Both the position numbers and the translations under genes were made by a program. Below, piece by piece: positions 1,687 to 29,012 of a stretch of 64,000 bases of DNA. The notes beneath the pieces are model-generated. The model was not told the DNA's origin and made no database searches. It worked only from the letters and a program-made list of their open reading frames with translations. This DNA comes from Chthoniobacterales bacterium (GTDB lineage: Bacteria; Verrucomicrobiota; Verrucomicrobiia; Chthoniobacterales; Chthoniobacteraceae), in contig JBBQZX010000025.1 in NCBI GenBank assembly GCA_038207335.1, positions 1 to 64,000 on the forward strand, given 5' to 3'. The first letter of the stretch is position 1. Every line of letters begins with the position of its first letter.

Positions 1687-2075
1687 TCATGCCCACAGAT
1701 TTCGGTCGAGAGTGCGGTATAGAATCGCTTCGCCGTTGTGCGGCGCGAGGACGTTTTCCTGACCGTCGAGATCGGCGATTGTGCGCGCGACTTTGAGGAT
1801 ACGATCGTAAGCGCGGGCACTGAAATTTAGTTCCGACATCGCGATCTGCAGCAGCCCTGCGGCGTCTTCGACCAATCGGCAGCGCGCCTTAATCATCTTC
1901 GCCTACATGCGCGCGTTGCAGCGAACTTTGCCGCCCGCAATGCGCTGCTTTTGCCGCCCGCGCGCCGCCGATGGCTCGCTCACGAATCGCGGCCGACGGT
2001 TCGCCCGACTCGCCACCGGAGAGCTCGCGGAAAGCAACTGCGGGCACGTCGAGATGGATGTCGATGCGGTCCCGT
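1687..2075 (-). pseudogene. comM: Decayed 3' fragment of comM (YifB/Mg-chelatase family)
   Basis: [17 protein letters not shown]...RCNARM*AKMIK...[20 protein letters not shown]...[10 protein letters not shown]. Matches the C-terminus of 6732..8264, with a frameshift and an in-frame TAG; no 5' part. Confidence 0.9.
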
Positions 2076-2140
2076 AAAATCGAGTTTCCACAGCAACCCG
2101 CCAACGCGTTCCCATTCATCATCCTCTGCCCGGCCCGGAA

Positions 2141-5100: not shown

Positions 5101-6484
5101 TCGAGCCGCCCTTGGCCCCAAGAGCGTTGGCGCTGGCCAAACCGCCCTCTCCGGCATCAACGACAATTTGGGCGTTCACGGCATTGAGGGCATTATTTTG
5201 CACCGCTCGATTCAGGATCTCCACCTTCGAAATGGCACCACCCGCACCGGCCTGGACGCCATCGCCCGCCAAGGAAGAGCCGCCGCCACCGCTGACGACG
5301 TCGATATCGTTGCCCGCCGCATTGTCTGTCGCGAGAGCGATCCGAACGGCCGACACCGCACCACCTGCACCCGCTATCTTGCCGTTGCCTCCGAATCCGG
5401 CGTAGAGAGCCACCTGTTCGTGCAGCAATTCCCCGCTAGGTTTGCCGGCCTTCGTGTAGCCGATAAAAATGGAAGACGCCGCGCCCCCCGAGCCGGCGGT
5501 GCCAGCCGGAGCAGCGCCACCGTTACCCGCCAGTAGAGTGATGGCTTCAGTGGAGTTATCGGTGGTCCCCGCGATGTAGAGACCTTGCAGTTTGCCCCCG
5601 GCTCCGCCCTTCGGCTTGGCCGCGCCGGGGATGGCGTCGCCGCCGTTCCCGGCCAAGAGGAACAGGCCATTTGCGTCGCCGAGGATTTGGATATTCGTGA
5701 GCGAGCCTCCGGCCGCGCCCTCCCCGCCGTTCCCGGCCGCGATCGTGCTGATGGCCGTGGTGGTGAGATTGGAGATGGAGGGACCGGCCTGGCCACTGGC
5801 CGGAGTGAAGGTCAACGGAGCGCTCAGCGGCACGCCCGGGAAGAAAGCGAACTTTTGCTCGACCGTCGCGGAACCAGCCCGGACGTCGGTGGCACTCGTG
5901 AAAGTAGCCTTGGCGATGCTCCCCCCGGTGAGGATTTTCCCGGAGATGACGCCCGCGGAAAGGGACACGATCCCCTGGTCCGCGAGGACGTGATTCGTGG
6001 TGACCTTGTCATTGGCCACGTCGAAATTGCTCACGACATCGGCCCCAATGTTCCCTTTGACGACGAGGCTCACCTTCGACCCCAGCGCCAGACCCATCAG
6101 CTCGTCGCGCTGGATCTCGTTGTCGTGATTCTTGTCCTGAAAAAAAGCCACGATCGTCCCACCTTTGACGGTGAGAAATTCCTCGAAGGTGCCGCCCGGC
6201 CCGGCGACATCGATGCGATTGTAAGCCTTCCCCGCACCCAGCTCGACATAATACGTGCTCGCCGTGTGCCCGACCGCGTTGCTGATGGCATCCGTCCCCG
6301 TCGCCATATTGACGAATGGGGAATCGGAATACTCGGTATCCGTCGAACTAAGGACGAGGCCGACCTGAAGGGAGGCGGGAGCGATGCGACTTTCCAAGGG
6401 TTCAATCCCGGGAGAAAGTGAGCGCACGGTGGAGGCGGGCAAACCCTTGGAGCCAACCATGGGGAGAGTATTAAAATTCCGCAT
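2141..6484 (-). CDS. Large glycine-rich secreted/surface protein with an LEPR-XLL-type N-terminal motif
   Basis: IEPLESRIAPA near the N-terminus (PVC extracellular-protein motif) and many AGxGGxG...GGxGGSI units. Start placed at the ATG of MRNFNT; the longer ORF start overlaps comM. Confidence 0.75.
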   Translation of the reverse strand: MRNFNTLPMVGSKGLPASTVRSLSPGIEPLESRIAPASLQVGLVLSSTDTEYSDSPFVNMATGTDAISNAVGHTASTYYVELGAGKAYNRIDVAGPGGTFEEFLTVKGGTIVAFFQDKNHDNEIQRDELMGLALGSKVSLVVKGNIGADVVSNFDVANDKVTTNHVLADQGIVSLSAGVISGKILTGGSIAKATFTSATDVRAGSATVEQKFAFFPGVPLSAPLTFTPASGQAGPSISNLTTTAISTIAAGNGGEGAAGGSLTNIQILGDANGLFLLAGNGGDAIPGAAKPKGGAGGKLQGLYIAGTTDNSTEAITLLAGNGGAAPAGTAGSGGAASSIFIGYTKAGKPSGELLHEQVALYAGFGGNGKIAGAGGAVSAVRIALATDNAAGNDIDVVSGGGGSSLAGDGVQAGAGGAISKVEILNRAVQNNALNAVNAQIVVDAGEGGLASANALGAKGGSITGVALLGSGLSVLGGNGSSGKAGGDGGSVSDIKILQAASIFARDVVANAGTGGNGTTGKGGRGGNIAGLKTVGAADFSSLNVNSGVAADGGDSVSGAGGIGGSVTGLVIQDSNSRGAATHLSGNAFLRTGAGGDGATAAAGGSLLNSTITTVDLTHTIRTGKGGKNLGSGNGGASGQVAGLNLVATGIYGAQTPVYVQVIVDPGGNGGTAPGNLSSGGAGGSIAKTSVVAAGSVALTAGDGGNGGGGAAGNGGSLLATRVLAGEGDLPFDALADSFGLVIAGNAGATGAKPGTGGSITGVKGAKPSGLFASRNLTIKAGNGSNGGHGGSITQFAYGGSTGIPIPSGAILVQAGGGSVAASGQSAGAGGSISSITGPAASGSTVFQAGNGAGSSARNSAGGSISKVSIIGGPEDSIFPASILSVVAGNAGNAGSPSGATDTAKGAAGGSVSNFTVTGVGPSIIIRSLAAGDGAPGRLQGGKGGSVTHVQVNDHDIGVKTGQDYGYSTMGGVFAGLGGAGGTKDGLAGNVQFIRADSISAIVAGKGSAPGLVEQVDHIVLNPGPGLLADVNGGAETQFALTFHPIVSVTTTVDGTASIPERQTITRLLGGSNAPNGLQPDGGFTTFQLTYGGQTTGLIDANADTATIQSALNGLNSIQSAGGVTLVDNAVNPNALDKGGQSFTVYFNSAGNRPLISGLGIEKTASLTGNAPAAVALALNQLPNIDDRNPNNSVFNGVTVTSTAGGGFEISFRSAGDQGAITAERAFDFSATGVPAVAPGYFSKSQNVDVVGVGGFVLYVDVGFGPEVTVRIPLNATPFQVETAINDLTGVQAVGEDVTVTAGLRSSYNVNFLFGESIIKGQEFSALTVVTSQSGGFGVSEIDVLSFPPSSQPIFLPADFAAAHIVGAIADFNELGAQRFRFIDANFNGVYDFAQGEIPIDGLIAAKKLSLSAPSNFIPQARYALQVQVRGPFVAVPAGTEFLDYDNL

Positions 6485-6731
6485 GACGAGACCGTGGGTC
6501 GAGTGAGACGTTGGAAACCGGGGAACAGGACTATTCCTGCCACCAATTTTTCCCAAACGCCAATGCAATCGCAAACGGAAACAAAGTTCGTTTCGGCGGA
6601 TGACTGGGCGCAAAATGGAGCCTTGCGCCTCAACCGAAGGGTCCTTCCTGAAAAGGTGACTGGAGTTCCAGCGGCAACTGATCTTCGCGTGCACGATTTC
6701 CGCGTCGGGCTTGACCGAGCGCGTCGAATGT

Positions 6732-8264
6732 CTAAGCCCAGAGGTTTCGGTCCAGCGTGCGATACTGAATCGCCTCGGCAACGTGCTCGGGTAGGATCGA
6801 TTCCTTTCCGTCCAAGTCGGCAATCGTGCGTGCGACTTTCAGGATGCGATCGTAAGCACGGGCACTCAAGTTGAGTTCGGTCATAGCCATTTGGATCAGC
6901 CCGGCGGAGGCTTCGCCGAGCGCGCAGTGAATCTTGATCATCTTCGCGGTCATCCGCGAATTGCAGCGCGTTTTGGTCTTCGCGAAACGCGCGCCTTGCA
7001 CCGCTCGCGCCGTCATCACCCGCTCGCGAATCGCGGCGGAAAATTCGCCGGGCTCGGTGCCGGCAAGTTCGCGAAACTGCACCGCGGGCACTTCCAGGTG
7101 AATGTCGATGCGATCGAGCAACGGCCCGGAGATGCGCTGCCGATACCGCTCGACCTGCTGCGGGCTGCAGCGGCACTCGCGTTTCGGGTCGCCAAAATAG
7201 CCGCACGGGCAGGGATTGAGAGCACAAACCAAAATAAAGTCGGCTGGAAAAGTCATCGAGCCGGATGCGCGCGAAATGTTCACGCGGGTATCCTCCAGCG
7301 GCTGTCTCAAAACCTCGAGTGTGGAGCGTTTGAACTCCGGTAGTTCGTCGAGAAAAAGCACGCCGTTGTGCGCGACGGAAATCTCGCCGGGACTCGGAGT
7401 CGCTCCGCCACCGATGAGGCCGACATCGGAAATCGTGTGGTGCGGCGCGCGAAACGGTCGCACGGCCACGAAAGCATTCTCGGCCGTGAGCAGCCCGCAG
7501 ATGCTGTGAATCTTCGTGCTCTCGATCGCCTCTTCGAGCGTCATCGGTGGCATCACGGTTGGAATGCGCTTAGCGATCATCGATTTGCCGGAACCCGGCG
7601 GTCCGAGCATCAGGAGGTTGTGACCACCGGAGACGGCGACTTCGATCGCGCGCTTCACATGGTACTGGCCACGGACGTCGGCGAAATCGAGGTCGTAATT
7701 TTGGTGTCGCGCGAAAAACTCACTCAGGTCCTCACGCACGGCCGTAAGCGGTTGTTTCCCGAGGAGGAACTCATACGTTTCGCGCAGATTCCGCACGCCA
7801 TAGACCTCGATGCCTTCCACCATCGCGGCCTCTCGCGCGTTCTGCTCCGGCACGACCACCGCGCGCTTTCCGCGGCGTCGGGCTTCGATCGCGATTGGCA
7901 GTACGCCCTTCACCGGTCGCACCGCGCCGGTGAGCGCGAGTTCGCCGACGAAGCAGTATTTATCGGCGTCCGGCAGCTCCACTTCCTCGCTCGCCGCAAT
8001 CATTCCGAGCGCGATCGGCAGGTCAAAGCTCGGCCCTTCTTTCTTCACATCGGCGGGCGCAAGGTTGACCGTCATCCGCCCGCGCGCCCAGCGGTAGCCG
8101 CTATTGCCGATGGCCGTCGTCACGCGGTCCTTGCTCTCTTTCACCGCGACATCGGGCAAGCCGACCACGACGATCACGGGACTGCCCGCGCCCGCATTGA
8201 CCTCGATCTCCACCTCGTACGCATCAACCCCAAAAACAGCTGCGGAATAGACCTTGGCAAGCAC
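6732..8264 (-). CDS. comM: ComM / YifB family Mg-chelatase-like AAA+ ATPase (competence helicase)
   Basis: [21 protein letters not shown], Walker [34 protein letters not shown] Zn motif, [21 protein letters not shown] start (MLAKVYSA). Confidence 0.95.
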
Positions 8265-8293
8265 GGCAGCGGAGAATCGCAAGCGGCTTTCGA

Positions 8294-8311
8294 AAAGCAA
8301 AGTTTTGCTTT
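8294..8311. promoter_or_regulatory. Perfect palindrome AAAGCAAA-GT-TTTGCTTT upstream of comM; candidate operator
   Basis: 8-bp perfect arms with a 2-nt spacer, AT-rich, about 30 bp upstream of the comM start. Function inferred. Confidence 0.4.
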
Positions 8312-8397
8312 AAAGACAGCAAAACGACGCCCGGCAAATGTGTCATTCCCACCCAAAAGCCCCCATGACTTCGTCGTGCTGGCGTCGCCCTCGCTTC

Positions 8398-8806
8398 AAC
8401 CCCTGCCCGTGCGGCTACTTCGGCGATCCGAAACGCGAATGCCTGTGCAGCCCGCAGCAGGTCGAGCGGTATCGCCAGCGCATTTCCGGGCCGTTGCTCG
8501 ACCGCATCGACATCCACCTCGAAGTGCCCTCCGTGCAGTTCCACGAGCTCTCCAACGCCGTGCCCGGCGAGTCGTCGGAATCGATGAGCGCAAAAGCAAA
8601 TCAAGGCCCACTGCGCGCTCAGCGAAGAGGCCAGCGGACTCATCCAGCTCGCGATGTCCGAGCCGAACCTCAGCGCCCGCGCCTACGACCGCATCCTGAA
8701 AGTCGCGCGCACCATCGCCGATCTGGACGGCCAGGAGAATCTCCAGCCGCACCACCTCAGCGAGGCGATCCAGTACCGCACCCTCGACTGCAATCTGTGG
8801 GCCTGA
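8398..8806 (+). pseudogene. comM: Second decayed comM 3' fragment, inverted relative to the intact gene
   Basis: [44 protein letters not shown]..., then an internal deletion and frameshift near 8580-8600, then KQIKAHCALSEEASGLIQLAM...[20 protein letters not shown]...YRTLDCNLWA*. Confidence 0.92.
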
Positions 8807-8851
8807 AAAGTTGAGGTTCCAGCGACACGCGCATTCGTGAAAATTGCGCCA

Positions 8852-10180
8852 ATGCAAAACCACTTCTGCGCGGTCTTTTTGAAAATCGGTGCCTGCTGCG
8901 CGTTGCTAAACGCGCTCGTCGGCTGCGAGTCGCTTAGCCACTATCCGGCGGGCGGATCGCCCGACCGCGCATTCATCACGTATTGGCCGGATGCCGGAAA
9001 GCGTGGCGGACTGCGCCTCGCGGTGAAGGATCTCATCGACATGAAAGGCGAGGTGACCACAGCGGGGTCCGAATATTTCGCGAAAAGCGCGCCGCCTGCA
9101 AAGCGCGATGCCGCCTGCCTCGCAATCGCACGAGAGCGAAATGTGGCCATCGTGGGAAAAGCGAATACCACGGAGCTTGCGATCGGCGTCTCGGGGATCA
9201 ATCGCTATTTCGGCACGCCGAAAAATCCTCTCACCCGGCGACGCAACTTGATCCCCGGCGGCTCCTCGTGCGGCCCCGCCGTAGCGGTGGCGAGCGGCAT
9301 GGCGGATGTGGCGTTTGGTACCGACACGGGCGGCTCAATTCGCGTGCCTGCGGCGTGTTGCGGCGTCCTCGGGCTGAAGACTACGTTCGGTCTCATCCCG
9401 CTCGACGGCGTCTATCCCATCGCGCCGACGCGGCTCGATACGATCGGGCCGCTGGCAAAAGATATGCCGCGGCTTGTGCAGGGGATGGATTTGCTGCAGC
9501 GCGGTTTTGCGGACCGGTATCGCGCGGCGGTCGCGGCGCGTCCCGCGGCCGGGCGGATTAAAGTCGGGCGTCTGCGCGTGCCGGGCGCCGATCCGAAAAT
9601 CGAGCTCGCGATCGACGAGGCACTTGCCGCGGCCGGGTTTCAGGTCGTCGAGCTCGGCAACGATTTCAAGAAGGCGTGGGTGCAGGCGGAGAAAGATGGG
9701 AACACCGTTTCGGCATCTAGCGCGTGGCTTTCGGATGCGAAATTCCGCAGCCAGCCTGGCATTCGGACGAGGACGAAAGCCGTCGTTGCGCTGGGCCAGT
9801 TTGAATACACCGTGAACTATCGCGACGCGCTTCGGCGGATTCCCGCGTGGCGAGTCACGCTCTCGCAAATGCTGCGACGCGTGGATTTCATCGCGCTGCC
9901 AACGATCAAACAACTCCCGCCTACGCTCCCACTTTTCGGAGGCACCGCGCTTTTCGAGGCAAAAGTCCTGACGATGCAAAACACCGTCGCGGTGAATCTG
10001 GCGGGCAACCCCGCGCTCGCGCTGCCCATCCCCGTCGCGGACCGCCGCGTGCCAGTCACGAGCCTGCAATTGATTGGCCCGCGTCTCGGCGAAGCGCAGC
10101 TCCTGAACGCCGCGCGCCTCGTCGTGACCGGCCTCGCGACTCCCGGTCCACACGGCCTCGCGGCAGCGCGGCGGCGATGA
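8852..10180 (+). CDS. Amidase signature (GatA/FAAH-like) enzyme, probable lipoprotein
   Basis: LAVKDLID (Lys), GGSSCG and GTDTGGSIRVPA (Ser-cisSer-Lys triad); N-terminal lipobox-like ALVGC. Confidence 0.88.
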   Translation: MQNHFCAVFLKIGACCALLNALVGCESLSHYPAGGSPDRAFITYWPDAGKRGGLRLAVKDLIDMKGEVTTAGSEYFAKSAPPAKRDAACLAIARERNVAIVGKANTTELAIGVSGINRYFGTPKNPLTRRRNLIPGGSSCGPAVAVASGMADVAFGTDTGGSIRVPAACCGVLGLKTTFGLIPLDGVYPIAPTRLDTIGPLAKDMPRLVQGMDLLQRGFADRYRAAVAARPAAGRIKVGRLRVPGADPKIELAIDEALAAAGFQVVELGNDFKKAWVQAEKDGNTVSASSAWLSDAKFRSQPGIRTRTKAVVALGQFEYTVNYRDALRRIPAWRVTLSQMLRRVDFIALPTIKQLPPTLPLFGGTALFEAKVLTMQNTVAVNLAGNPALALPIPVADRRVPVTSLQLIGPRLGEAQLLNAARLVVTGLATPGPHGLAAARRR

Positions 10181-10191
10181 GGAAGTAGCCC

Positions 10192-10956
10192 ATGCATCCC
10201 CTCCCTTATCTCCTCCGCGCCGCGCTCGTCCTCCTTTTCGCCGGCAGCGCGCTCGGCGCCGAGTCCCCCGATGAACTGATGAAACGTGGCGACGCCCTCG
10301 ACCAGCGGCTCGCGGCTGGCGAAGCGCTGAATTTTTACCTGCCCGCAGAAAAGCTTGAACCAAAGAACGCACGCCTCCTCACCCGCATCGCCCGTCAGTA
10401 CCGGCATCTCATGGCGGATGCGCCATCGAATGCCGAGAAACTGCGCCTCGGTAGCATCGCGCTCGACTATGACAGGCGCGCCGCCGCAGCCGATCCCAGC
10501 GACTCGGACGCACAGCTTTCCGTCGCAATCTCGCTCGGAAAAATGCTGCCGCTTCTCGGCTCGAAAGCGCAGGTCGAGGCGTCTCCACGCATCAAGGCCG
10601 CGGCAGACAAAGCTCTCGAACTCGACCCGCGCAATGACCTCGCATGGCACATCCTCGGCCGCTGGAATCGCATCCTCGCCGACGTGGGTGGGGTGAAGCG
10701 CGCGCTCGCCGGAGTCATCTACGGATCGCTCCCCGTTGGCTCTAACGCTGAGGCCGCGCGCTGCCTGGAAAAGGCGGTTGCGATCAATCCGAACCGCCTC
10801 ATTCACTACGTTGAACTCGGCCGGATTTACGCACAGATGGGGCGAAAGGACGACGCCCGCGGGATGCTGAAAAAGGGTCTCTCCATGCCCAGCCTCGAGA
10901 AGGACGACCCCGAGGCTAAGAGCCAGGCACGGGACGTCTTGAAGCAACTTCGGTAG
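10192..10956 (+). CDS. Secreted TPR-like helical repeat protein
   Basis: Signal peptide (ALVLLFAGSALG-A); TPR-like ADKALELDPRNDLAWHILG and LEKAVAINPNRLIHYVELGRIY. Confidence 0.75.
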   Translation: MHPLPYLLRAALVLLFAGSALGAESPDELMKRGDALDQRLAAGEALNFYLPAEKLEPKNARLLTRIARQYRHLMADAPSNAEKLRLGSIALDYDRRAAAADPSDSDAQLSVAISLGKMLPLLGSKAQVEASPRIKAAADKALELDPRNDLAWHILGRWNRILADVGGVKRALAGVIYGSLPVGSNAEAARCLEKAVAINPNRLIHYVELGRIYAQMGRKDDARGMLKKGLSMPSLEKDDPEAKSQARDVLKQLR

Positions 10957-10999
10957 AGTTGAGCTCCAGATCCGGCGAGGTATCAGCGCGTGGAAACGC

Positions 11000-12934
11000 T
11001 CACACCCCGCCGATGAACTCGCGATGCCAAAGCTGCGTGGCGACGACCGCGCAGAGGCCCATCTCGACGGACAGGCGCGGCATCGAGCCGACGCGCATCT
11101 CGCGGAATGCGCGGCGCCAGTGGGTTACTTGTTTCACATCGAAATAGCCCGTTTTGCGCAGCGCCGCTTCGCTCAAGAGCTCGGCCACGAATGCCGGCTC
11201 GGGGTCCATGTGAAAGCTGTCCAGCGGCGCGCGGAAGATGACCTTATGCCGCCGTGCGATCGATTTCGGCACCCACCGCTCGGCGAGTTGCCGCAGGAGA
11301 TATTTGTCCCGAAAGCCGCGCAGTTTCCAGCTCGGGTGCAGCTTCGCTGTGAAGTCGAACACATCTTCATCGAGAAACGGATACCGCACTTCGACCGACG
11401 AATTCATCGCCACACGGTCGCCTTTCGCCTGCAGTAAATGGCCCGCGAGCGTCACGCGGCCTGCGACCCAAATGCCGCGATTTAGCGGGTGCCATCGCTT
11501 CGCACGCTCGATCGGGAATTGCAGATCGGCCCACGGATTCGACTGTGCCAAGACTTCGCGCATCGATTCGGAATAAAATCGCAGCTTCGAGATCGCGAGC
11601 AGCCCGTAGGCATCCACCCACGCGTTTGGCCCGCCGACCGATGCCTCAACCGTGTGTCGCCACGAGGCCGGATAGTGCGGCACATTTTGCAACCGCAAAA
11701 AGCCTCGCCGCGCAACATCCGCGAGCGGCAGTCCGGGAATCGCATTCAGCACGCCGATGATTTTAGCGAGTTTGTACCAAGGGTATCCGAGCAGCCACTC
11801 GTCCGATCCCTCGCCCGTAAGCACAACTTTTTGGCCGCACGCGTGGACCTTTCGCGCGAGCTGCAGCAGCGCCGCGCAGGAGGTATCGATCACCGGGGCC
11901 TCCGCCGCTCGGATCAGTTCAGGATACGTCTCCAGCGCATCGCTCGCACGGAAATCCTGCACGATCGGCGGTTTCGTCCCGACGTGCCGCGCGGTCTCGT
12001 TTGCGGCATCGAGCTCATCGAGCTCCGGCGAGTCCACGCGGATCGTGTAGGTGTTGATGGCGGGGCCTTTCAGGTGGCACGCGAGCGCCACGATCATGCT
12101 GGAATCCACCCCGCCGGAAAGATACGCACCGACCGGCACATCGGCCCGCAGCCGCTCCTCCACGGCGTGCAGCAGCACCTTTTCAAAATCATCCACCACC
12201 CGCTTCGGGTCGCCGCGCTCTTCATCGCCGGCGTCCGGAAAATTCATTTCCCAGTAAGCCCGCTCTTCGATTTCCGCGCTATTGCCGGTTCCGGCCGATG
12301 GTGAGATTTCGAGAAAATGACCCGCTCGCAGAAGCTGCACCTTTTCAAAACAAGTCACCGGACCCGGCACGGCGGCGAATGTGAAAACGTGATCAAGCCC
12401 GCGCCGGTCGGGCCGCACCGGCACCATGCCGGAGGCGAGCAGGCCCTTGATCTCCGACGCGAAAAGCAGCCAGTCGCCGTGGCGGCTCCAATACAATGGC
12501 GCGATGCCGAACCGATCGCGCCCGAGCAGCAGTCGCCGCCGCTTTTCATCCCACAGCGCGACCGCGAACTGTCCGCGCAACCGCGCAAAAACATCGGCGC
12601 CGGCTTCTTCGTAAGTGTGCGGGATTATCTCCGTGTCGCAGTGCGTGCGGAGGCGGTGGCCGCGCGCCTCCAGTTCCGCTCGGCGCTCGGCGTGGTCGAA
12701 AAGCTCGCCATTGAAGACGACGGACACGTCGCCCGATTCGTTCGACATCGGTTGCTGCCCATCCGCGAGGCCGACGATGCTGAGCCGCCGCATCCCGAGC
12801 GCGAGCCCCGGCCGCACCAGGTATCCCTCCTCATCCGGGCCGCGATGGATGAGCGCGCGCGTCATTTTTTCGATGACGCCGGAAGGCACCGTTTGGTTGC
12901 TGGAGAGTCCGATGATGCCTGCGATGCCGCACAT
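11000..12934 (-). CDS. asnB: Asparagine synthetase B-family glutamine amidotransferase
   Basis: N-terminal MCGIAG, HRGPD, RRLSI, FNGE, YLSGGVDSS, LTGEGSDE, EVRYPFLD. Confidence 0.92.
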   Translation of the reverse strand: MCGIAGIIGLSSNQTVPSGVIEKMTRALIHRGPDEEGYLVRPGLALGMRRLSIVGLADGQQPMSNESGDVSVVFNGELFDHAERRAELEARGHRLRTHCDTEIIPHTYEEAGADVFARLRGQFAVALWDEKRRRLLLGRDRFGIAPLYWSRHGDWLLFASEIKGLLASGMVPVRPDRRGLDHVFTFAAVPGPVTCFEKVQLLRAGHFLEISPSAGTGNSAEIEERAYWEMNFPDAGDEERGDPKRVVDDFEKVLLHAVEERLRADVPVGAYLSGGVDSSMIVALACHLKGPAINTYTIRVDSPELDELDAANETARHVGTKPPIVQDFRASDALETYPELIRAAEAPVIDTSCAALLQLARKVHACGQKVVLTGEGSDEWLLGYPWYKLAKIIGVLNAIPGLPLADVARRGFLRLQNVPHYPASWRHTVEASVGGPNAWVDAYGLLAISKLRFYSESMREVLAQSNPWADLQFPIERAKRWHPLNRGIWVAGRVTLAGHLLQAKGDRVAMNSSVEVRYPFLDEDVFDFTAKLHPSWKLRGFRDKYLLRQLAERWVPKSIARRHKVIFRAPLDSFHMDPEPAFVAELLSEAALRKTGYFDVKQVTHWRRAFREMRVGSMPRLSVEMGLCAVVATQLWHREFIGGV

Positions 12935-13109
12935 AGAGTTGTCCCACTACTTCGGGCCTCGTCCACGGCGCAACCGTCTTTTTTGGCGCCTAAGTGGAAG
13001 TCCGTAGGATCAACCGCTTTCCAGATTCCGAATCGTCTTTTTACAGTCCACAGAGATGCGCGCGATCCGAGCGCGACCTTGACGTTATAAATCCGCGCCC
13101 GAAATCTTC

Positions 13110-13730
13110 ATGCAATCCATAGGCTCAATCCTTTCCCGCGTTGGCGAAAAAATCTTCCCGTTCCGACTCGCCATCGGTCTGGCCATCGCGCTATTCGCGC
13201 TCGAGTGGCTGAGTCCTCGTCCGTTCTTCGCCCCGCACTATCGCCTGCTCCACGGCCTCGCGTTGCTCGTGATCGCAGGGGGGCTCGCGCTGCGGGCGTG
13301 GGCCGCCGGGCACGCCGGAGGCCACACGCGATCCGGCGAGATCGAGGCGGGGTCGCTTGCCACGGGCGGCCCATTCGGCCACGTCCGCAATCCCATCTAC
13401 GTCGGCAGCATGTGCCTCGGCTTGGGCATGTCGCTCCTCATTGGCGACCCGTGCGCCCTTCTCTTTTCGGCGATCGCCTTCACCATTCTCTACCTCGCAA
13501 TCATCCCAGCTGAGGAGCGCTTCCTCAGCATGCGTTTCGGCTCTGAATACGCCGCCTACTGCGCATCGGTCCCGCGCCTTTTCCCCAGGCTCACACGGTG
13601 GAAAAATGACCCACCAATTCGGTTCCGATGGCGCGCCGCCGCCGGCGAGTTCTGGATTTTCCTCATCCTCGTGGCGATCTACGCGGCGCTCTTGTTCGAG
13701 GAACATTTGGACGCGATCGGACTCTCGTAA
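13110..13730 (+). CDS. Isoprenylcysteine carboxyl/phospholipid methyltransferase (ICMT/PEMT) family membrane protein
   Basis: LATGGPFGHVRNPIYVG and EERFLSMRFGSEYAAYCASVPR motifs; multiple TM helices. Confidence 0.85.
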   Translation: MQSIGSILSRVGEKIFPFRLAIGLAIALFALEWLSPRPFFAPHYRLLHGLALLVIAGGLALRAWAAGHAGGHTRSGEIEAGSLATGGPFGHVRNPIYVGSMCLGLGMSLLIGDPCALLFSAIAFTILYLAIIPAEERFLSMRFGSEYAAYCASVPRLFPRLTRWKNDPPIRFRWRAAAGEFWIFLILVAIYAALLFEEHLDAIGLS

Positions 13731-13825
13731 AATGCAACCGGGGACTATTCCCGGGGGCGAAGATCGCCCCTTGTCAGACTTCTGTTCCACCCCGAACGTC
13801 CGCGCTCCATTTTCACCACGCTTTT

Positions 13826-21472
<7,647 letters not shown>

Positions 21473-21483
21473 GAGACACAGGG

Positions 21484-22815
21484 ATGCCCGACGACAAACG
21501 CGCCCGGCTGAAGCAATGGCTCGCCAGCGGCGAGGCTCGGCTGCATCCGCTCACGTTTCCACAGCGCGAATTGTGGGAGGCCTCACCCGCGCCTCCGGGC
21601 GATGCGTCGAATCACATCTGCTGTATCATCAAAGTCCGGGGATCGGCCACCACAGGGGATTGCCGGGCGGCGCTGCAGCTTGTCGTCGATCACCAAGAGG
21701 CGCTGCGTCTTTCGTTTTTGCCTGGAAAGGACGGGCCGCTTCAGCTCGTGAGGCGCAACGCTGAGGCGAATGTCCGCTTCCGCGATTTGTCACCCGCCGA
21801 CGGCCAACCTGAGGCGATTGAGGAACAGGCACGCGAGATTTTTTGCGAGCCATTCGACCTCCTCCAAGGGCCGCTTTACCGTATGGAGGTGATCCGGCGC
21901 AGCGAAGGGGATTTCGTCATGCCCCTCGCGATTCATCACGCGATCGCCGATGGCTGGACACTCGGGATTTTCGTTCGCGACTTGTGCGGCGCGTATCTCC
22001 AGCGAGCAATGGGTGCAAAGGAAACCCCGCCCGCGCTCCCCCTTTCCTACACGGGCTGGGGGGCCGAGGAGGGTGCCTTTTGGACGCCGCCCGAGCTTGA
22101 AAAGCGCGCCGCATTTTGGAGACCCGCACTCGCCGGATCGCGCAGGCTCTGGAACTCGTCGTCGTCGCCCGAGCCGCTCCAGCACAGGGTCTTCGAGCTA
22201 CCTATGGAACTTGCGAAAGCAGCGCGCAGGGTCGCGAAGCGCACCGGAGCCACACTTTTCTCGACCCTGCTCGCGGTATTCCAAATCACGCTATTCAAAC
22301 GCACCGGCGAGACGGACATCGTCGTCGGCTCACCCGTCGCAAATCGCGCAAAGCAAGCCGTTCGCGAGACGATGGGCTATTTCTCGGGCGTCGTGCCACT
22401 GCGCAGCGAGGTCGATCCAGCTCGCACATTCGCCGAGAGCCTGCGCGGCGTGCAGCAGATGACCGTCGATGCTTTTGCCAACGCGATGCCCTTCGCCGAA
22501 CTCGCGCGCTCGCTCGGCGAACCGGGCGCTCCCGGCCGCAACCCGATCTTCGAGGTCCGCTTCGCCTTGCAAAATCATCCAGTGCCCGACATCGCGATGC
22601 CCGGTCTCTCCGCCCAACTCCGCATGCGCTCAACCGGCACGCCGCGGTGCGATCTCGCGTGCGAGATCACCGAAAAGGGCGAAGCGCTGGAAGTTGTCTG
22701 GCTTTTTCGTCCGCACCTCTTTTCGCTGGATGACATCGGCGAATTGAATCGCATCTTTCATTCCGTACTCGTCGCCGCCTGCCGCGCGCCCGACGAACGC
22801 TTGAACGCTCAATGA
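21484..22815 (+). CDS. Stand-alone NRPS-type condensation domain protein
   Basis: PLTFPQRELW, HQEALR, PFDLLQGPLYR, catalytic HHAIADGW, DIVVGSPVANR, RNPIFEV. No A or T domain. Confidence 0.92.
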   Translation: MPDDKRARLKQWLASGEARLHPLTFPQRELWEASPAPPGDASNHICCIIKVRGSATTGDCRAALQLVVDHQEALRLSFLPGKDGPLQLVRRNAEANVRFRDLSPADGQPEAIEEQAREIFCEPFDLLQGPLYRMEVIRRSEGDFVMPLAIHHAIADGWTLGIFVRDLCGAYLQRAMGAKETPPALPLSYTGWGAEEGAFWTPPELEKRAAFWRPALAGSRRLWNSSSSPEPLQHRVFELPMELAKAARRVAKRTGATLFSTLLAVFQITLFKRTGETDIVVGSPVANRAKQAVRETMGYFSGVVPLRSEVDPARTFAESLRGVQQMTVDAFANAMPFAELARSLGEPGAPGRNPIFEVRFALQNHPVPDIAMPGLSAQLRMRSTGTPRCDLACEITEKGEALEVVWLFRPHLFSLDDIGELNRIFHSVLVAACRAPDERLNAQ

Positions 22816-23774
22816 ATTCCACGATCCTCGAAGCCTCCGAAACCGATGCGCCCGAGCCTCACTGGTTCGCTCGCGCTGCATTCCCGGTGATTTCCCTGGC
22901 CTCGATCACCGTCCTCGGGACGCTCGGTTTCGCAGTGAATCGCGCACTGTATTTGCTGGCCGTGCCGCTCGTTTTGCTCACAGGCCATTTTATGCACGGG
23001 CAGCTCATCGGTTTTCACGAAGCCTCGCACGGCATGTTGCGCAAAAGCCGCCGGCTCAACGAAATCGACGGGATATTCATCGGCGTCCTCAGCTTCATGA
23101 GCTTCACGCTCTACCGCGCTGCGCATCAGACGCACCACATGCATCTCGGCACGGTGCGCGACGAAGAACTTTGGCCATTTGTGCTTCCGGAAATGCCGCG
23201 CTGGCGACGAGTTCTCGCCGCATTTCTGGAGCTTTTCGTTGGGCTCGCATTCACGCCATATCTCTTCCTCCGCACCTTCTTCCGCGCAGGTTCGCCGATC
23301 CGAAGCAAGAGGGTGCGCCGCCGGGTTTGGGCTGAACTGGCGTTGATCGCGGGCTTTTGGATCATCTTCCTTTCCTCGATCGCGGTGTTCGATTTGTGGA
23401 AATATTTCCTCTGGATGTATCTGGCGCCGTCGATCATCGCGGGCAATTTGCAGAGCTGGCGTAAATACATCGAGCACGTCGGGATGACCGGCTCCACCAT
23501 CCGCGGCGGCACGCGCAGCATCGTCGCGGAGGGTCCAATCGGGCGGCTCGTTTCATTCACGCTTTTGCATGAGCCGTATCACGGCGTGCATCATCAGCGC
23601 GCCGGATTATCGCACGCAGAGCTTCCGTTTTTTGCCGCCGATCTCGCACCCTCCGAACCGGATGAATTCGCGCCTTTCCCGAGCTACCGCCACGCGTTTT
23701 TGCACCTCATCCGAGAGCTGGGCGACCCGCGAGTCGGCGCGCAATGGCGCCGCGCGAACACGGCGCACAAGTGA
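22812..23774 (+). CDS. Membrane fatty acid desaturase/hydroxylase family
   Basis: Three His boxes (HEASH, HQTHH, HGVHH) and TM helices; ATGA overlap with the C-domain gene. Confidence 0.9.
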   Translation: MNSTILEASETDAPEPHWFARAAFPVISLASITVLGTLGFAVNRALYLLAVPLVLLTGHFMHGQLIGFHEASHGMLRKSRRLNEIDGIFIGVLSFMSFTLYRAAHQTHHMHLGTVRDEELWPFVLPEMPRWRRVLAAFLELFVGLAFTPYLFLRTFFRAGSPIRSKRVRRRVWAELALIAGFWIIFLSSIAVFDLWKYFLWMYLAPSIIAGNLQSWRKYIEHVGMTGSTIRGGTRSIVAEGPIGRLVSFTLLHEPYHGVHHQRAGLSHAELPFFAADLAPSEPDEFAPFPSYRHAFLHLIRELGDPRVGAQWRRANTAHK

Positions 23775-23852
23775 TTTCAGAACCAGTCATGCGCGCCGCG
23801 GCGATTCATCTTGGTATGCGACCCCTACGGTCGAATCTCTCCACCCACTGAC

Positions 23853-24578
23853 GTGCCACAAGACACCGAAACAGCATCCGCGTCCGAGCGAATTTTCGAG
23901 GCTGCGGGGCTGAAGAAAGATTACGACGACGGCCAGGTGCAGGCGCTGCGCGGGCTGGATTTTCAGATCGATCGCGGCGAATTCGTCGCGATCGTCGGCC
24001 CGAGCGGATGCGGAAAAAGCACGCTGCTGCAAATGCTCGGCGCACTCGACCGGCCGAGCGCGGGCTCGCTTGCCTACAGCGGAAAGTCGCTCGGCGACAT
24101 GGCCGATGCCGCTGCGTATCGCGCCCGCGAGATCGGCTTCATCTTCCAGGCGTTTCATCTGCTGCCGACTTTCACGGCGCTGGAAAATGTGCAAATCCCG
24201 ATGTTCGAGACGGACCGTCCGCTCGCGGAGCGAAAAGCGCGCGCCATCGAGCTGCTGACCTCGGTCGGGCTTGCACAACGGCTCGATCATTTCCCATCGA
24301 AACTCAGCGGCGGCGAACGGCAGCGCGTGGCGATCGCGCGCAGCCTCGCCAATGAGCCGTGCGTGCTGCTCGCAGACGAACCTACGGGCAATCTCGACAG
24401 CGAAAGCTCACTCCACATTTTGACCCTCCTCACGCGGCTGCACGCCGAACGGCGCATGACGCTCGTGCTCGTGACGCACGACATGACCGTGGCCCGCCGC
24501 GCCTCGCGCGCGCTGCGGATGAAGGACGGTCGCATCGTTTTCGACGGCAGCCCCGCGGAGTTGCACGCGGAGATTTAA
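23853..24578 (+). CDS. ABC transporter ATP-binding protein (LolD/MacB-like)
   Basis: GPSGCGKST, LSGGERQRVAIAR, LLADEPTGNLD, VTHD. Start codon uncertain. Confidence 0.92.
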   Translation: MPQDTETASASERIFEAAGLKKDYDDGQVQALRGLDFQIDRGEFVAIVGPSGCGKSTLLQMLGALDRPSAGSLAYSGKSLGDMADAAAYRAREIGFIFQAFHLLPTFTALENVQIPMFETDRPLAERKARAIELLTSVGLAQRLDHFPSKLSGGERQRVAIARSLANEPCVLLADEPTGNLDSESSLHILTLLTRLHAERRMTLVLVTHDMTVARRASRALRMKDGRIVFDGSPAELHAEI

Positions 24579-24579
24579 A

Positions 24580-25695
24580 ATGACTTTTTTCTCCGTCATC
24601 CTCCGCGGGCTTTTGCGTCGGCCCGTCCGCACCGCGCTCACACTCGGCGGCATCTCGATCGGCATCGGCGCGGTCGTCGCGCTCGTCGGCATGTCGCGCG
24701 GATTCGAGACGAGCTGGACGGATGGAATGAAGTCTCGCGGCACCGACATCGTGGTCAACAACATGGGCACCTCGCTCGTGCCGAAGCCATTTCCCGCAGC
24801 AGTGCGCGACCGCATCGCGGCGCTGCCTGGCATCGCGGCGACTTGCGAAATTCTGGTCGAACTCGAGAGCGTCGAGAGCGCAGACATGACGATCATCTCG
24901 GGGCGCGAATGGGGCGGATTTTCGTGGGGCAATCTGAAGCCGGTGGAGGGACGCTTGCCGCTGGATGCCACGGAAAAAGCGGCGGTGCTCGGCAAGTCGG
25001 TGGCTGAGATTTTAAAAAAGAAAATAGGCGACCCGATACAGATCGAGACGGAGGAACTCACCGTAGTCGGGATCGTCGATGGCGGCGCAGTCGTGGAAAA
25101 TGGATCGGTGATCCTGTCGCTGCCGCTGCTCCAGCAGATCACAGGGAACGAAGGTCGCATCAACATCATCGACGTGCGGGTGGCGCCCGGCTCGAACGAG
25201 GCGGCGGTGCGCGCGCTGTGCGACGAGATCACGCGGCGGGTGCCGGAGGCGCGCGCGTCGCCGGCGGATGAGCACATTCGCAACAGTCAGAGCTTTCGCA
25301 TCATCAACGCGATGAGCTGGGGCACGTCGCTGCTCGCTGTGCTCGTCGGCGTGCTCGGCGTCATGAATACGATGCTGATGACGGTCTTCGAGCGGCGGCA
25401 GGAGATTTCGATCCTGCTCGCGATCGGCTGGCGGCGCGCCCGCGTCGTGCGGATGATCCTGTGCGAATCCGCGCTGCTCGGGTTCTTCGGCGGCATCGTG
25501 GGCTCGGCACTCGGCGTCGCCGGGATGAAAGCGCTCGAGAAAACGCCGGCGATCCGAGGTCTCTTGAAGCCGGACCTGAGCGCGGGACTCATCGCTGCAT
25601 CGGTCGGCATCGCGGTCGTCGTCGGCGTTGTCAGCGGGCTTTACCCGGCGTGGCGCAGCTCGCGGCTGAGCCCGGCCGCGGCGCTCCAGGGCTGA
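24580..25695 (+). CDS. ABC transporter permease (MacB/FtsX/LolE-like)
   Basis: RRPVRTALTLGGISIG, large periplasmic loop, NTMLMTVFERRQEISIL, GLYPAWRSSRLSP. Confidence 0.9.
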   Translation: MTFFSVILRGLLRRPVRTALTLGGISIGIGAVVALVGMSRGFETSWTDGMKSRGTDIVVNNMGTSLVPKPFPAAVRDRIAALPGIAATCEILVELESVESADMTIISGREWGGFSWGNLKPVEGRLPLDATEKAAVLGKSVAEILKKKIGDPIQIETEELTVVGIVDGGAVVENGSVILSLPLLQQITGNEGRINIIDVRVAPGSNEAAVRALCDEITRRVPEARASPADEHIRNSQSFRIINAMSWGTSLLAVLVGVLGVMNTMLMTVFERRQEISILLAIGWRRARVVRMILCESALLGFFGGIVGSALGVAGMKALEKTPAIRGLLKPDLSAGLIAASVGIAVVVGVVSGLYPAWRSSRLSPAAALQG

Positions 25696-25735
25696 GCGCA
25701 CCGCCATGCCGGGCGCGCGCGGCGAATAGACTTTC

Positions 25736-26500
25736 GTGAATACACTCCTCCGCACCGCCGCCGCCGCCCTCGTCTCTGTCGCATTCGCCAGCGCCGCCGA
25801 GCCGGAAATTTCCGCGGCTGAGCTTGCCGGCCGGCTCGCCGCAAAGCAGCAGGACGGCTCCTCGCTCATCCACTTGAAAATGGACAACTCGGGCGCGGCG
25901 GGGGGCACGCTTCAGCTTCAGATCAAGTCTCGCTCAACCCCCGGAGGCGCCGAGCTCGTCTATCAAGTCCTCTGGCCAAAGGAGCGCAAAGGCGAAGCCG
26001 TCCTCTTGCGCCGCTCCGAAAATCAGGCGGCGACCGGCGCGGTCTTCACCCCGCGCGGTGGGGTACAGGGCCTCGGCCCAAAGCGAATCGACGAACCGCT
26101 CTTCGGCAGCGCATTGTCCTACGAGGACGCGATCGAGAACTTCTTCGCGTGGGGCCAGCAGGCGATCGCCGGTATGGAAACTGTCGATCGCGTGCCGTGC
26201 CAAATCCTCGAGTCCAAACCCGGCCGCGGCGACCACTCCTACTACACCAGCGTCCGCACTTGGGTGGACACGCGCCGCATGGTCCCGCTCCGCGTGGAGA
26301 AATACGCGCGCTCCGACAAGCCCGTCCGCTGGATCGAAACCACGCGCGTCGCCAACGACGACAACGGCCGCCCCGTCGCGGCGAACATCACAGTCCACGG
26401 TCCCGGCGGTGCCACCACCGACCTCGATGGCTCAAAAATCAAGCACGGCGCAACATTCACCGATGAGGAATTCACGCCCGATGGATTGAAAAATCCGTGA
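25736..26500 (+). CDS. Outer-membrane lipoprotein-sorting (LolA-like) periplasmic protein
   Basis: Signal peptide; PKERKGEAVL, LFGSALSYED, CQILESKP, YTSVRTWVD...PLRVEKY, as in LolA-like proteins found next to MacB-type ABC genes. Confidence 0.78.
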   Translation: MNTLLRTAAAALVSVAFASAAEPEISAAELAGRLAAKQQDGSSLIHLKMDNSGAAGGTLQLQIKSRSTPGGAELVYQVLWPKERKGEAVLLRRSENQAATGAVFTPRGGVQGLGPKRIDEPLFGSALSYEDAIENFFAWGQQAIAGMETVDRVPCQILESKPGRGDHSYYTSVRTWVDTRRMVPLRVEKYARSDKPVRWIETTRVANDDNGRPVAANITVHGPGGATTDLDGSKIKHGATFTDEEFTPDGLKNP

Positions 26501-26538
26501 GGCTGCCGCAACGCGGCGAATGCTCGTCGCTCTGAAAG

Positions 26539-26568
26539 AACCCCCCGCCCGTGTGGCTACTTCGGCGA
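26539..26568 (+). repeat. Isolated comM core sequence (att-like); direct repeat of 8398..8426
   Basis: aaccccccgcccgtgtggctacttcggcga vs aacccctgcccgtgcggctacttcggcga: 27 of 30 aligned columns identical. Preceded by atgctcgtcgct (MLVA), resembling the comM codons just upstream of NPCPCG. Confidence 0.8.
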
Positions 26569-26959
26569 AGCCGTCTAGTTGCCGCCACCCTGAGACACCA
26601 CATTCCCACCGCCTTGGGCGACGAAGATGACGCGGTCTCCGCGAGCGGGAGGACTCCGACGCCGTTGGTCAGTGCGAAGCCGTCGGTGACGGCGATCATC
26701 ACGCCGTGCGAGGAAACGCTCAGGCTGTTCGTAGGACCGTCGAGGTCGGTGTGATTGTGGCCGGAGATTGCGCCGCCGATGCCGTAGGAAAGACGCCGAG
26801 GCTTTCCCCGCCCAACCAACGTAATTGCCGGACCGCACGTTGGTGGAGAGCACGCGCGCGACCGCGGAAGCCGCGTTATGGGCGGAAACATAGGAAGGGG
26901 CGGTCTTCGATGGTAAAGGCGTCGAAATCGAGCCCCCGGCGACACTGCGCTCCCTCGGG

Positions 26960-27163
26960 TTGACCGCACGCGAGGCGGAAGTGCTTCATTGGATGACCGA
27001 AGCCGAGAGCAACGGAGACATCGCCAAAATCCTCGGCATCAGCATCCGCACCGCTGAAAAACACGCGGAGCGGATCTTCGCCAAGGTCGGCGCGGAGAGC
27101 GGGCAAGCCGCGCTTTTGCACGTGGCTTGCCTTTCCACGGGAGTGGCACTACGGCATCGATGA
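26960..27163 (+). pseudogene. Truncated LuxR-family HTH regulator (C-terminal HTH only)
   Basis: LGLTAREAEVLHWMTEAESNGDIAKILGISIRTAEKH. An in-frame TAG lies about 20 codons upstream; no sensor domain. Confidence 0.65.
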
Positions 27164-27296: not shown

Positions 27297-29012
27297 CTAG
27301 TGGTCTTCCGCGGTCATGCGGAGGACTTCTTCGAGGGTGGTGATGCCTTGGCGCGCTTTGTCGATGCCGACCATGCGGAGGGTTCTCATGCCTTCGGCGA
27401 CGGCTTGGTTTTTGATGACGGCGGCGCTGGCTCGTTTGACGATGAGGCGGCGAATGGCTTCGGAGATGGGGAGCACCTCGATGATGGCGGCACGGCCGAT
27501 GTAGCCGCGTTTTTTGCACCGCTCGCAGCCGACGCCGTGGTAGAAGACGGCGCTTTCGTCATGCTCCATCTCGAGTTTTTCGAGAAGTTCGGCTTCGGGG
27601 ACGAATTCGTCGCGGCAGTTCGGGCAGATGCGGCGGACGAGACGCTGGGCGCAGGTGAGGAGGATGGAGGAGGAGATGAGGAAAGGCTCGATGCCCATAT
27701 CATCCAGCCGGGTGATGGCGCCGGCCGCGTCATTCGTGTGGAGGGTGGAGAGAACTTGGTGGCCGGTGAGTGCGGCTTTGACGGCGATGTCTGCGGTTTC
27801 GTTGTCGCGAATCTCGCCGACCATGACGATGTCTGGATCCTGCCGGAGGATGGAGCGAAGGGCGTCGGCAAAGCCGAGGCCAATGTCGGCTTTGACGGCG
27901 ACTTGGTTGATGCCCTGGAGCTGGTATTCGATGGGGTCCTCAACGGTGACGATGTTGTACTCGGGGCTGTTGAGCTCGCTGAGGACGGAGTAAAGGGTGG
28001 TGGTCTTGCCGGAGCCGGTGGGGCCGGTGACGAGGATCATGCCGTGGGGGGCATCGACGGCTTTTTTGAAGGTGCCGAGGGTGTAGTCGTCCATGCCGAG
28101 CTGGTCGATGCTGCCGCTGAGTGCGCCTTTATCGAGGAGTCGGATGACGATTTTCTCGCCGTGAATGGTGGGCAGGATGGAGATACGGAGATCGACCTCT
28201 TTTCCCGAGACGCGGATGCGGAAGCGGCCGTCCTGCGGGAGGCGACGCTCTGCGATGTCGAGGCCGGCGAGGATTTTGATGCGCGATGCGATGGGCATCT
28301 GGAGGGCCTTGGGGGGACTGCTTGCTTCGATGAGGTTACCATCGACGCGATACCGCAGCTTGAGCATTTTCTCAAAGGGCTCGATGTGAATGTCGGAGGC
28401 TTTTTCCTTGAGCGCTTGGACTAGGATGAGGTTGACGATCTTGACGACAGGGGCGTCTTCGCTTTCGACTGCGAGGCGGTCGAGGTCGATTTCTTCGCGG
28501 TTGTGTTTGACCTCCTCGACGGTGTCGGCGACCTGCTGCGCGGCGCTGCGCAGGACCATATCCATCTGACTGCTGGAGGAGCCGACGCCGCTGAGGGCCT
28601 CCATGACACTTCGCTCGGTCGTGATCATGGGGATGATCTCGAGCTTTGTGCGCTGACGGAGGTCGTCGAGGGCGAGGACGTTCAGCGGGTCCGCCATCGC
28701 CACGAAGAGCTTGTTCCCGAGGCGACAGACGGGAGCGAGCTTGTAGGCGCGCGCCATGTCTTTGGGGACGAGCTCGATGACTTCTTCGGGGATCCGAAGT
28801 TTGGAGAGATTGATCGGCGGCGTATCGAGGCAGCGGCCCATGGAGATAACCATGTCCTGCTCGGTGACGTACTGCTTGTCGGTGAGCAGCTTGAGAAGCC
28901 GTCCACCTTGCTTTTTCTGAATTTCGACGGCTTCGGCGAGTTGAGCCGGGAGAAGGAGGCCGTCTTCGATCAGAACGTCGGCGATGCGTTCGCCAAAAGA
29001 TTTAATGCTCAT
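27297..29012 (-). CDS. pilB: Type IV pilus assembly / T2SS GspE-PilB family ATPase
   Basis: ASDIHIEP, LDIAERRLPQDG, GPTGSGKTTT, LRQDPD, STLHTN, CPNC...CERC Zn motif; MshEN-like N-terminus. Confidence 0.9.
   Translation of the reverse strand: MSIKSFGERIADVLIEDGLLLPAQLAEAVEIQKKQGGRLLKLLTDKQYVTEQDMVISMGRCLDTPPINLSKLRIPEEVIELVPKDMARAYKLAPVCRLGNKLFVAMADPLNVLALDDLRQRTKLEIIPMITTERSVMEALSGVGSSSSQMDMVLRSAAQQVADTVEEVKHNREEIDLDRLAVESEDAPVVKIVNLILVQALKEKASDIHIEPFEKMLKLRYRVDGNLIEASSPPKALQMPIASRIKILAGLDIAERRLPQDGRFRIRVSGKEVDLRISILPTIHGEKIVIRLLDKGALSGSIDQLGMDDYTLGTFKKAVDAPHGMILVTGPTGSGKTTTLYSVLSELNSPEYNIVTVEDPIEYQLQGINQVAVKADIGLGFADALRSILRQDPDIVMVGEIRDNETADIAVKAALTGHQVLSTLHTNDAAGAITRLDDMGIEPFLISSSILLTCAQRLVRRICPNCRDEFVPEAELLEKLEMEHDESAVFYHGVGCERCKKRGYIGRAAIIEVLPISEAIRRLIVKRASAAVIKNQAVAEGMRTLRMVGIDKARQGITTLEEVLRMTAEDH

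Follow-up and report, generated by a model that had tools for sequence, protein, structure and literature searches.

How does a large polyketide cluster come to lie between two pieces of the same competence gene? The window, by which we mean the whole stretch of 64,000 nucleotides analysed here (C25:1-64000 of the source genome G000, a Chthoniobacteraceae assembly of 5.17 Mb in 53 contigs that is 94.7% complete), holds ten genes between two direct repeats of a short core of comM, also known as yifB. The original prediction took these repeats for attachment-site (att) scars at the ends of one island. We find that the left copy reads as an attR scar, left by an element of the large serine recombinase (LSR) type that targets comM. 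The right copy reads as a decayed attR or a scrap of comM, and the window as a whole is likely to show a decayed comM-LSR scar of a known class with an accreted, recombinase-less island. The features on which this rests are as follows.

8374 to 8397, forward strand: attP-derived (P) arm of a comM-targeting LSR family, assigned by arm matrix scores and forming the attR junction with the core
8398 to 8426, forward strand: left comM core, with the crossover placed by symmetry at 8407-8408
8398 to 8807, forward strand: comM 3' half pseudogene, frameshifted and about 76 nt shorter than the intact half
26520 to 26568, forward strand: right comM relic, made of an upstream arm that arm comparison leaves unclassifiable, the core (26540-26568) and 19 bp of comM 3' arm; not an attL
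6732 to 8264, reverse strand: intact comM/yifB (TIGR00368 above cut-off), its target site intact, head-to-head with the left scar
1687 to 2077, reverse strand: second decayed comM 3' remnant, a direct repeat of the tail of the intact comM, past a 4.7-kb gene

The two copies share one orientation, and the right copy begins 38 bp past the stop codon (at 26500) of the last cluster gene, which encodes a LolA-like protein. Re-measured, 8398-8426 and 26539-26568 agree in 27 of 30 columns with one gap, as originally reported, or in 26 of 29 columns without gaps when the right copy starts at 26540. The core is not common in the genome: at no more than 3 mismatches, the 29-mer has three sites in the assembly (8398 and 26540 on the forward strand and 7217 on the reverse strand, inside the intact comM), all of them comM-derived, and the next-best site differs at 7 positions. 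The only listed sequencing run with this stretch is a sediment metagenome, which may be the source of the assembly and was available as contigs; no RNA data set containing the stretch was listed. These contigs, assembled independently, cross both repeat junctions with zero differences, which counts against misassembly and is silent on excision. Among the 15 joints listed (6 more exist), none corresponds to 8398/26540, which is no evidence on excision either way.

Among 40 relatives, comM ends at about residue 355 in four, and 3' halves start at or just before the NPCPCG motif of the core in three. In five genomes (G014, G037, G119, G126 and G162; G-numbers denote relatives from a sample of about 150 Chthoniobacteraceae genomes, including 10 congeners, the closest at about 85% DNA identity) comM is cut at NPCPCG with an LSR nearby. 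The LSRs adjoining or near the cuts combine PF00239 and PF07508, mostly with PF13408. The view of comM as an insertion hotspot thus holds for this family, with NPCPCG as the LSR target. The core pattern was present in 133 of 151 family genomes, and two or three matches occurred in 16 of the 151, G000 among them, some being a second full-length comM; a reversed pattern, used as control, matched in 1 of 151.

The junctions fall into two classes. In class I (G014, G016, G017, G022, G099, G100, G118, G156 and G162) the crossover lies at the first Cys codon, and in class II it is placed by symmetry 3 bp further, at the start of the second Pro codon. Genome G126 (C31:36185-68142) carries a complete class II element of 30.4 kb in the order comM 5' half, attL, convergent LSR, cargo, attR, comM 3' half; its arms are symmetric at 24 of 29 positions and its attP can be read. 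In the attL of relatives, the comM 5' half stands ahead of the crossover and at most about 3 bp of comM follow it. A search with the class II LSR against species-representative contigs returned its own record and 9 weak matches only.

The 24 bp ahead of the left core resemble a class II arm. On a matrix of five arms from LSR-bearing genomes (G126 twice, G037 twice and G119) they score 15.7 bits, a value reached by 2.9e-6 of genome positions. On the larger set of ten arms, 8374-8397 scores 20.1 bits (reached by 3.9e-7 of genome positions), versus -38 on the comM-arm matrix. Read in reverse, the G126 attL arm agrees with the left arm at 19 of 29 positions. A P arm, a crossover and a comM 3' half in succession make up an attR, so the left copy reads as such a scar, and the element that it closed would have lain leftward. 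Scanned for arms throughout, the assembly (94.7% complete) showed no second class II arm beside any comM core. The comM tail of the left copy clusters with the comM genes of G000, G005 and G008 (90/95, unstarred) and not with the closest relatives of the cluster. The idea that the cluster brought its own comM 3' replacement thus finds the tail on the side of the local, congeneric comM, in a tree test that is not decisive, as forcing the tail with genus g35 was not rejected by the approximately unbiased (AU) test (p=0.085). A short motif common to the arms lies 22-23 nt ahead of the core box in class II arms versus 18 nt in comM arms, that is, 4-5 bp outward. A similar attP-versus-attB offset of about 5 bp outward is described for the LI integrase (PMC3783163), but here the motif lies farther from the crossover; a shift in integrase recognition is a lead only.

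What, then, is the right copy? Past the crossover it agrees with the comM 3' arm of the left copy at 18 of 19 positions and with the G126 attL arm at 10 of 34. It retains a comM 3' arm and is therefore not an attL. Its upstream arm passes neither as a clean P arm nor as a clean comM arm, since neither match is significant without gaps; allowing one gap gives p=0.02-0.10 for a P arm and 0.15 for a comM arm. The MLVA-like comM codons that had been noted ahead of this copy do occur at 26520-26531, yet their frame is offset from that of the core by +1 and +2 nt, and taken alone they do not make a significant comM arm (gapped p=0.15). A first trial, with class I P arms and comM arms as the references for the upstream arms, gave no information. 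The right site has suffered mutation and truncation, and the bracket does not have two functional ends. Because both copies bear a comM 3' arm, and the left one has a P arm in place of the host 5' half, they do not form an attL/attR pair. The notion of att scars hence survives for the left copy and fails for the two as a pair, and both copies appear to be comM-3'-type relics, as in the comM arrays of at least six relatives.

In these relatives (G022, G082, G099, G118, G131 and G163), comM 3' halves that are 73-91% identical stand as direct repeats around other cargo, and G156 probably has the same bracket in a broken contig. The cargo of the G163 bracket is a block for sulfate uptake and assimilation. 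In G008 and G162 an intact comM points away from an attR, at distances of about 18 kb and 15 kb respectively; the intact comM of G163 likewise faces away from a partial comM. In G162 (C55:1-80000), a 3.3-kb block with the comM 5' half and a gene for a type IV secretion system coupling protein (PF10412) occurs twice, 86.5% identical; one block is completed to an intact comM and the other is joined to the LSR as an attL that faces away from its attR. In total, this stretch holds two related elements, one intact comM, one attL with LSR and two attR. The orientation of the attL is that expected after inversion between attP and attB, which suggests element-borne comM halves and inversions, in an order of events that is itself reconstructed, and offers a possible route to the head-to-head comM layout of the window.

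Several further observations concern these elements. The cargo in G126 includes a gene for a Cas4-Cas1 fusion and neighbouring large open reading frames (ORFs). In G014 (C2:1-5768), TIR-domain genes (PF13676 and the ThsB-like PF08937) lie next to the LSR of a class I element and are probably defence cargo. The target motif varies, with NPCACG in G139 (C1159), NPCA at the cut in G119 (C27) and NPCKCG in g35; such variants alter the inferred class II crossover bases, and G119 is cut there all the same.

No recombinase is encoded by the 43 window ORFs that were scanned with family profiles, in line with the original observation. The same scan found no transposase families (transposon ends were not searched separately) and no integration or transfer genes in the cluster cargo. 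Elsewhere in G000, a single PF07508 LSR lies on C46. It is 22% identical to the class I enzyme and was unmatched by the class II query at E<=1e-10, and so is distant from both comM-targeting classes. Ten tyrosine-recombinase matches occur in G000, none on C25. A recombinase acting in trans was therefore rejected, and neither an attL nor an LSR matching the comM arms was found in the assembly.

The bracketed cargo comprises the following genes.

8837 to 10180, forward strand: amidase (PF01425), the first cluster gene, 30 bp past the comM remnant
10192 to 10956, forward strand: tetratricopeptide repeat (TPR) protein, from the domain scan
11000 to 12934, reverse strand: asparagine synthase-like amidotransferase, AsnB (PF00733; TIGR01536 above cut-off)
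13110 to 13730, forward strand: PEMT/ICMT-type methyltransferase (PF04191)
13628 to 21472, forward strand: highly reducing type I polyketide synthase (HR-PKS), KS-AT-DH-MT-ER-KR-ACP; its true start is probably near 13826, as homologues align from about residue 66
21484 to 22815, forward strand: stand-alone condensation domain (PF00668)
22812 to 23774, forward strand: fatty acid desaturase (PF00487)
23811 to 25695, forward strand: LolD/MacB-like ABC ATPase and permease, from the domain scan
25736 to 26500, forward strand: LolA-like protein (PF17131), the last cluster gene

The ten genes make up a cluster with HR-PKS, condensation domain, AsnB, desaturase and Lol-like export. From the domain content we infer that the product would be an exported, amide-linked, methylated and desaturated lipid. 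The cluster fits tightly into its bracket, with 30 bp from the comM remnant to the first gene on the left and 19 bp from the last gene to the relic on the right. Matches to the LolA-like protein occur in 56 of 150 family genomes (a few of them distant, at 29-33%) and matches to the amidase in 54 of 150; among the 10 congeners, one has an orthologue of the LolA-like protein and none has the amidase. Across relatives the gene order is kept, at times split or interrupted, and the neighbours differ from genome to genome.

We compared the permease and LolA-like proteins in a tree of 27 rows, from which 4 were omitted with the permease missing or cut and 2 further loci were unused. G000 groups with G075, G013 and six g35 genomes (99/95), and its nearest congener G005 falls in another starred clade. 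A constrained clade of G000 and G005 was rejected (AU p=5.8e-75). Between these two genomes, housekeeping proteins such as PilB and IlvD are 93% identical versus 52-77% for the cluster proteins. The cluster hence looks foreign: judged by its sequences, it is not shared by descent with the nearest congener, and the tree fits a transfer.

Both flanks of the locus have been rearranged, and the features beyond the right copy are the following.

26578 to 27163, both strands: gene debris, namely a fragment of a C24-like secreted-protein gene (reverse, by similarity) and a LuxR helix-turn-helix (HTH) fragment (forward, PF00196)
27297 to 29012, reverse strand: pilB, whose 3' end adjoins ilvD in G005 and G008

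The debris that had been noted here is confirmed, with a frameshifted fragment 70-73% identical to genes on C24. In G005 and G008, the two nearest congeners, ilvD comes directly after pilB, but the ilvD of G000 is on C10; the contiguity in the congeners places a rearrangement breakpoint between pilB and the right relic. Likewise, comM stands beside a sigma-factor gene in six relatives, and that gene is on C27 in G000. With both adjacencies broken, both flanks have been rearranged. An empty site, with comM joined to pilB, was proposed as a comparison; neither the 10 pilB loci nor the comM loci among the matches listed showed one, no congener being closer than about 85% in DNA identity.

G000 contains four scattered comM scraps, including a comM 5' remnant on C12, and scraps occur in relatives as well. 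The start of the intact comM lies 110 bp from the P arm of the left copy. Between them, 7217-8398 is a 1.2-kb segment (comM 5' half and P arm) flanked by inverted comM 3' halves (195 bp, 84% complementary); flipping it would connect the 5' half with the broken tail, and the flipped form was not seen in the contigs of the probable source run. The remnants at 1687-2077 and at L090:4932-5324 both start at an LDRID motif, downstream of a direct-oriented intact comM, and may mark another target site or breakpoint. Between the intact comM and its 3' remnant, 2141-6823 encodes a Gly-rich ORF of 1560 aa with no Pfam or NCBIfam match, whose N-terminal motif recurs in other large G000 proteins. Positions 1-141 of the window overlap the end of C12 exactly (141 bp). 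At the far end of C25, outside the window (89556-89771), about 215 bp are common to C10 and to C46, beside the unrelated LSR of the latter, which suggests a repeated element at contig breaks.

How the cluster came to lie in this bracket is a separate matter. We give an even chance to serial accretion by LSR elements that used the NPCPCG site in comM; the cluster would be stranded, recombinase-less cargo, later reshuffled and now fixed. In an older event, the cluster would have acquired a fresh comM 3' half at its left end, with a junction at its right end. The layout of comM, cargo, attR and 3' half is known in relatives; a comM repair that deletes the end with the LSR could produce it, as could RecA-type integration by way of the 3' half. 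That comM would then have been split by a second LSR element, leaving the left attR, and a later inversion and deletion would have removed the second element and brought the intact comM into its head-to-head position beside the scar. It is plausible that the cluster was delivered through comM, and the unit is probably immobile now.

Several points weigh against this reading. The class II arm set was put together after the likeness to the left arm had been seen, with the left arm itself outside the training set, and on leave-one-out the G163 arm fails with -4.9. Ungapped, the right upstream arm scores -14 to -18 bits as a P arm. GC content, overall and at third codon positions (GC3), shows no clear shift at the cluster. 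We fetched the loci of the best 29 non-self genomes per search and 80 of 114 metagenome LolA loci; 25 of the 29 LolA loci reach at least 300 bp downstream, 27 of the 29 amidase loci at least 300 bp upstream, and 61 metagenome loci at least 300 bp (20 at least 5 kb). comM, its core or an LSR was found at 0 of 29 LolA, 0 of 29 amidase and 0 of 80 metagenome loci (0 of 138), and longer stretches around other cluster copies were likewise without comM or LSR linkage. Relatives keep the gene order of the cluster but have no comM repeats around it, which largely matches the pattern that the original prediction had named as evidence against itself. A cluster that is common and has varying neighbours moves or is lost by other routes. 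The gene-tree conflict, too, could reflect old paralogy with differential loss, and genus g35 falls in three places on the permease and LolA tree.

The strongest rival we regard as somewhat unlikely. Here the left attR is real, but the cluster came by an unrelated route (illegitimate recombination or rearrangement) into a long-lived hotspot, and the right relic is a scrap of comM at the breakpoint near pilB. The missing comM linkage at the 138 other loci, the varying neighbours, the scattered scraps and the two broken adjacencies all agree with it. Against it, both scraps lie no more than 30 bp from the conserved end genes and share one orientation, both start at the LSR site, and the same bracket surrounds other cargo in at least six relatives.

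Rather unlikely, in our view, is a version in which comM-targeting elements of this family carry their own comM 5' half or a spare gene, in G162 together with a conjugation coupling gene, and invert or re-join halves, so that the host regains a working comM while cargo accretes between displaced tails. The HR-PKS cluster would have been delivered in this way, with 7217-8398 as the minimal relic of an invertible module.

A single circle of arm, core, comM 3' half and cluster, integrated once through the core of about 30 bp into a truncated attR scar by the debris and pilB, would modify the original idea of a comM 3' replacement carried along. It gives the observed order in one step, with the direct repeat as the integration duplication. 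We nevertheless hold it to be improbable: 30 bp is short for RecA, and the left 3' half sides with the local comM, although forcing it with g35 was not rejected. Nor is attR a normal substrate for integration, the account in PMC3783163 being of no recombination between other pairings.

The literal form of the original prediction, in which the repeats pair up as attL and attR of a single island still open to excision by a recombinase encoded elsewhere, is largely refuted and highly improbable. The direct orientation, the unique core and the real LSR target speak for it. Against it, an attL in relatives holds at most about 3 bp of comM past the crossover after a comM 5' half, whereas the left copy in the window bears a P arm and the right copy a comM 3' arm, and the sole PF07508 LSR of the genome is distant from both comM-targeting enzymes. 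Chance likeness or an assembly artefact at the right copy, for which its mere 29 bp in a GC-rich genome might be cited, has next to no probability given the 7 mismatches of the nearest non-comM site, the reversed-pattern control and the independent contigs across both junctions.

The scar itself is ordinary, since comM is an established and very frequent target of LSRs: genes for Mg-chelatase/ATP-dependent protease (comM/yifB) are the target of 12.4% of predicted site-specific integrases in the survey of Durrant et al. 2022 (PMC10083194). The accreted bracket shares with the elements described there, and with phage sr1WO of Wolbachia (PMC9203015), the target family, the PF00239 and PF07508 enzymes in relatives and the left attR. 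It differs in that G000 has two tandem comM-3'-type junctions and an inverted intact comM, and in that LSR, attL and an intact element were not found. Cis-mobilizable elements (CIMEs) and tandem accretion (PMC5704250), such as the ssrA islands of Dehalococcoides (PMC3146451), are likewise described as cargo that lacks a recombinase, lies between repeated ends of a target gene and is stacked at a single attB. In CIMEs, however, attL and attR are both preserved and integration restores the target end, whereas here LSR insertion splits comM, the right site carries mutations and a truncation, and mobility is putative. The AbaR/Tn6022-type comM islands (PMC11472951) use the same hotspot gene but are Tn7-like and transposase-based, in contrast to the LSR-type junction arm seen here. 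Our literature search, with most subscription papers beyond its reach, found no description of duplicated or tandem comM islands and none of a cluster combining HR-PKS, condensation domain, AsnB, desaturase and Lol-like export.

For two LSR families that use the same motif 3 bp apart, the arms of attP, attL and attR can now be read, and the G126 element lends itself to direct testing. Time and again, comM has been broken and remade in this family of soils and sediments, which gives rise to arrays and inverted halves and bears on the contest between mobile elements and natural transformation; in Acinetobacter, as described in PMC11472951, loss of comM lowers transformation with heterologous DNA, and its repair by recombination has been raised. 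The end genes of the HR-PKS cluster occur in about a third of the 150 family genomes. If the cluster did come through comM, then a large biosynthetic cluster would have spread by accretion at a competence gene.

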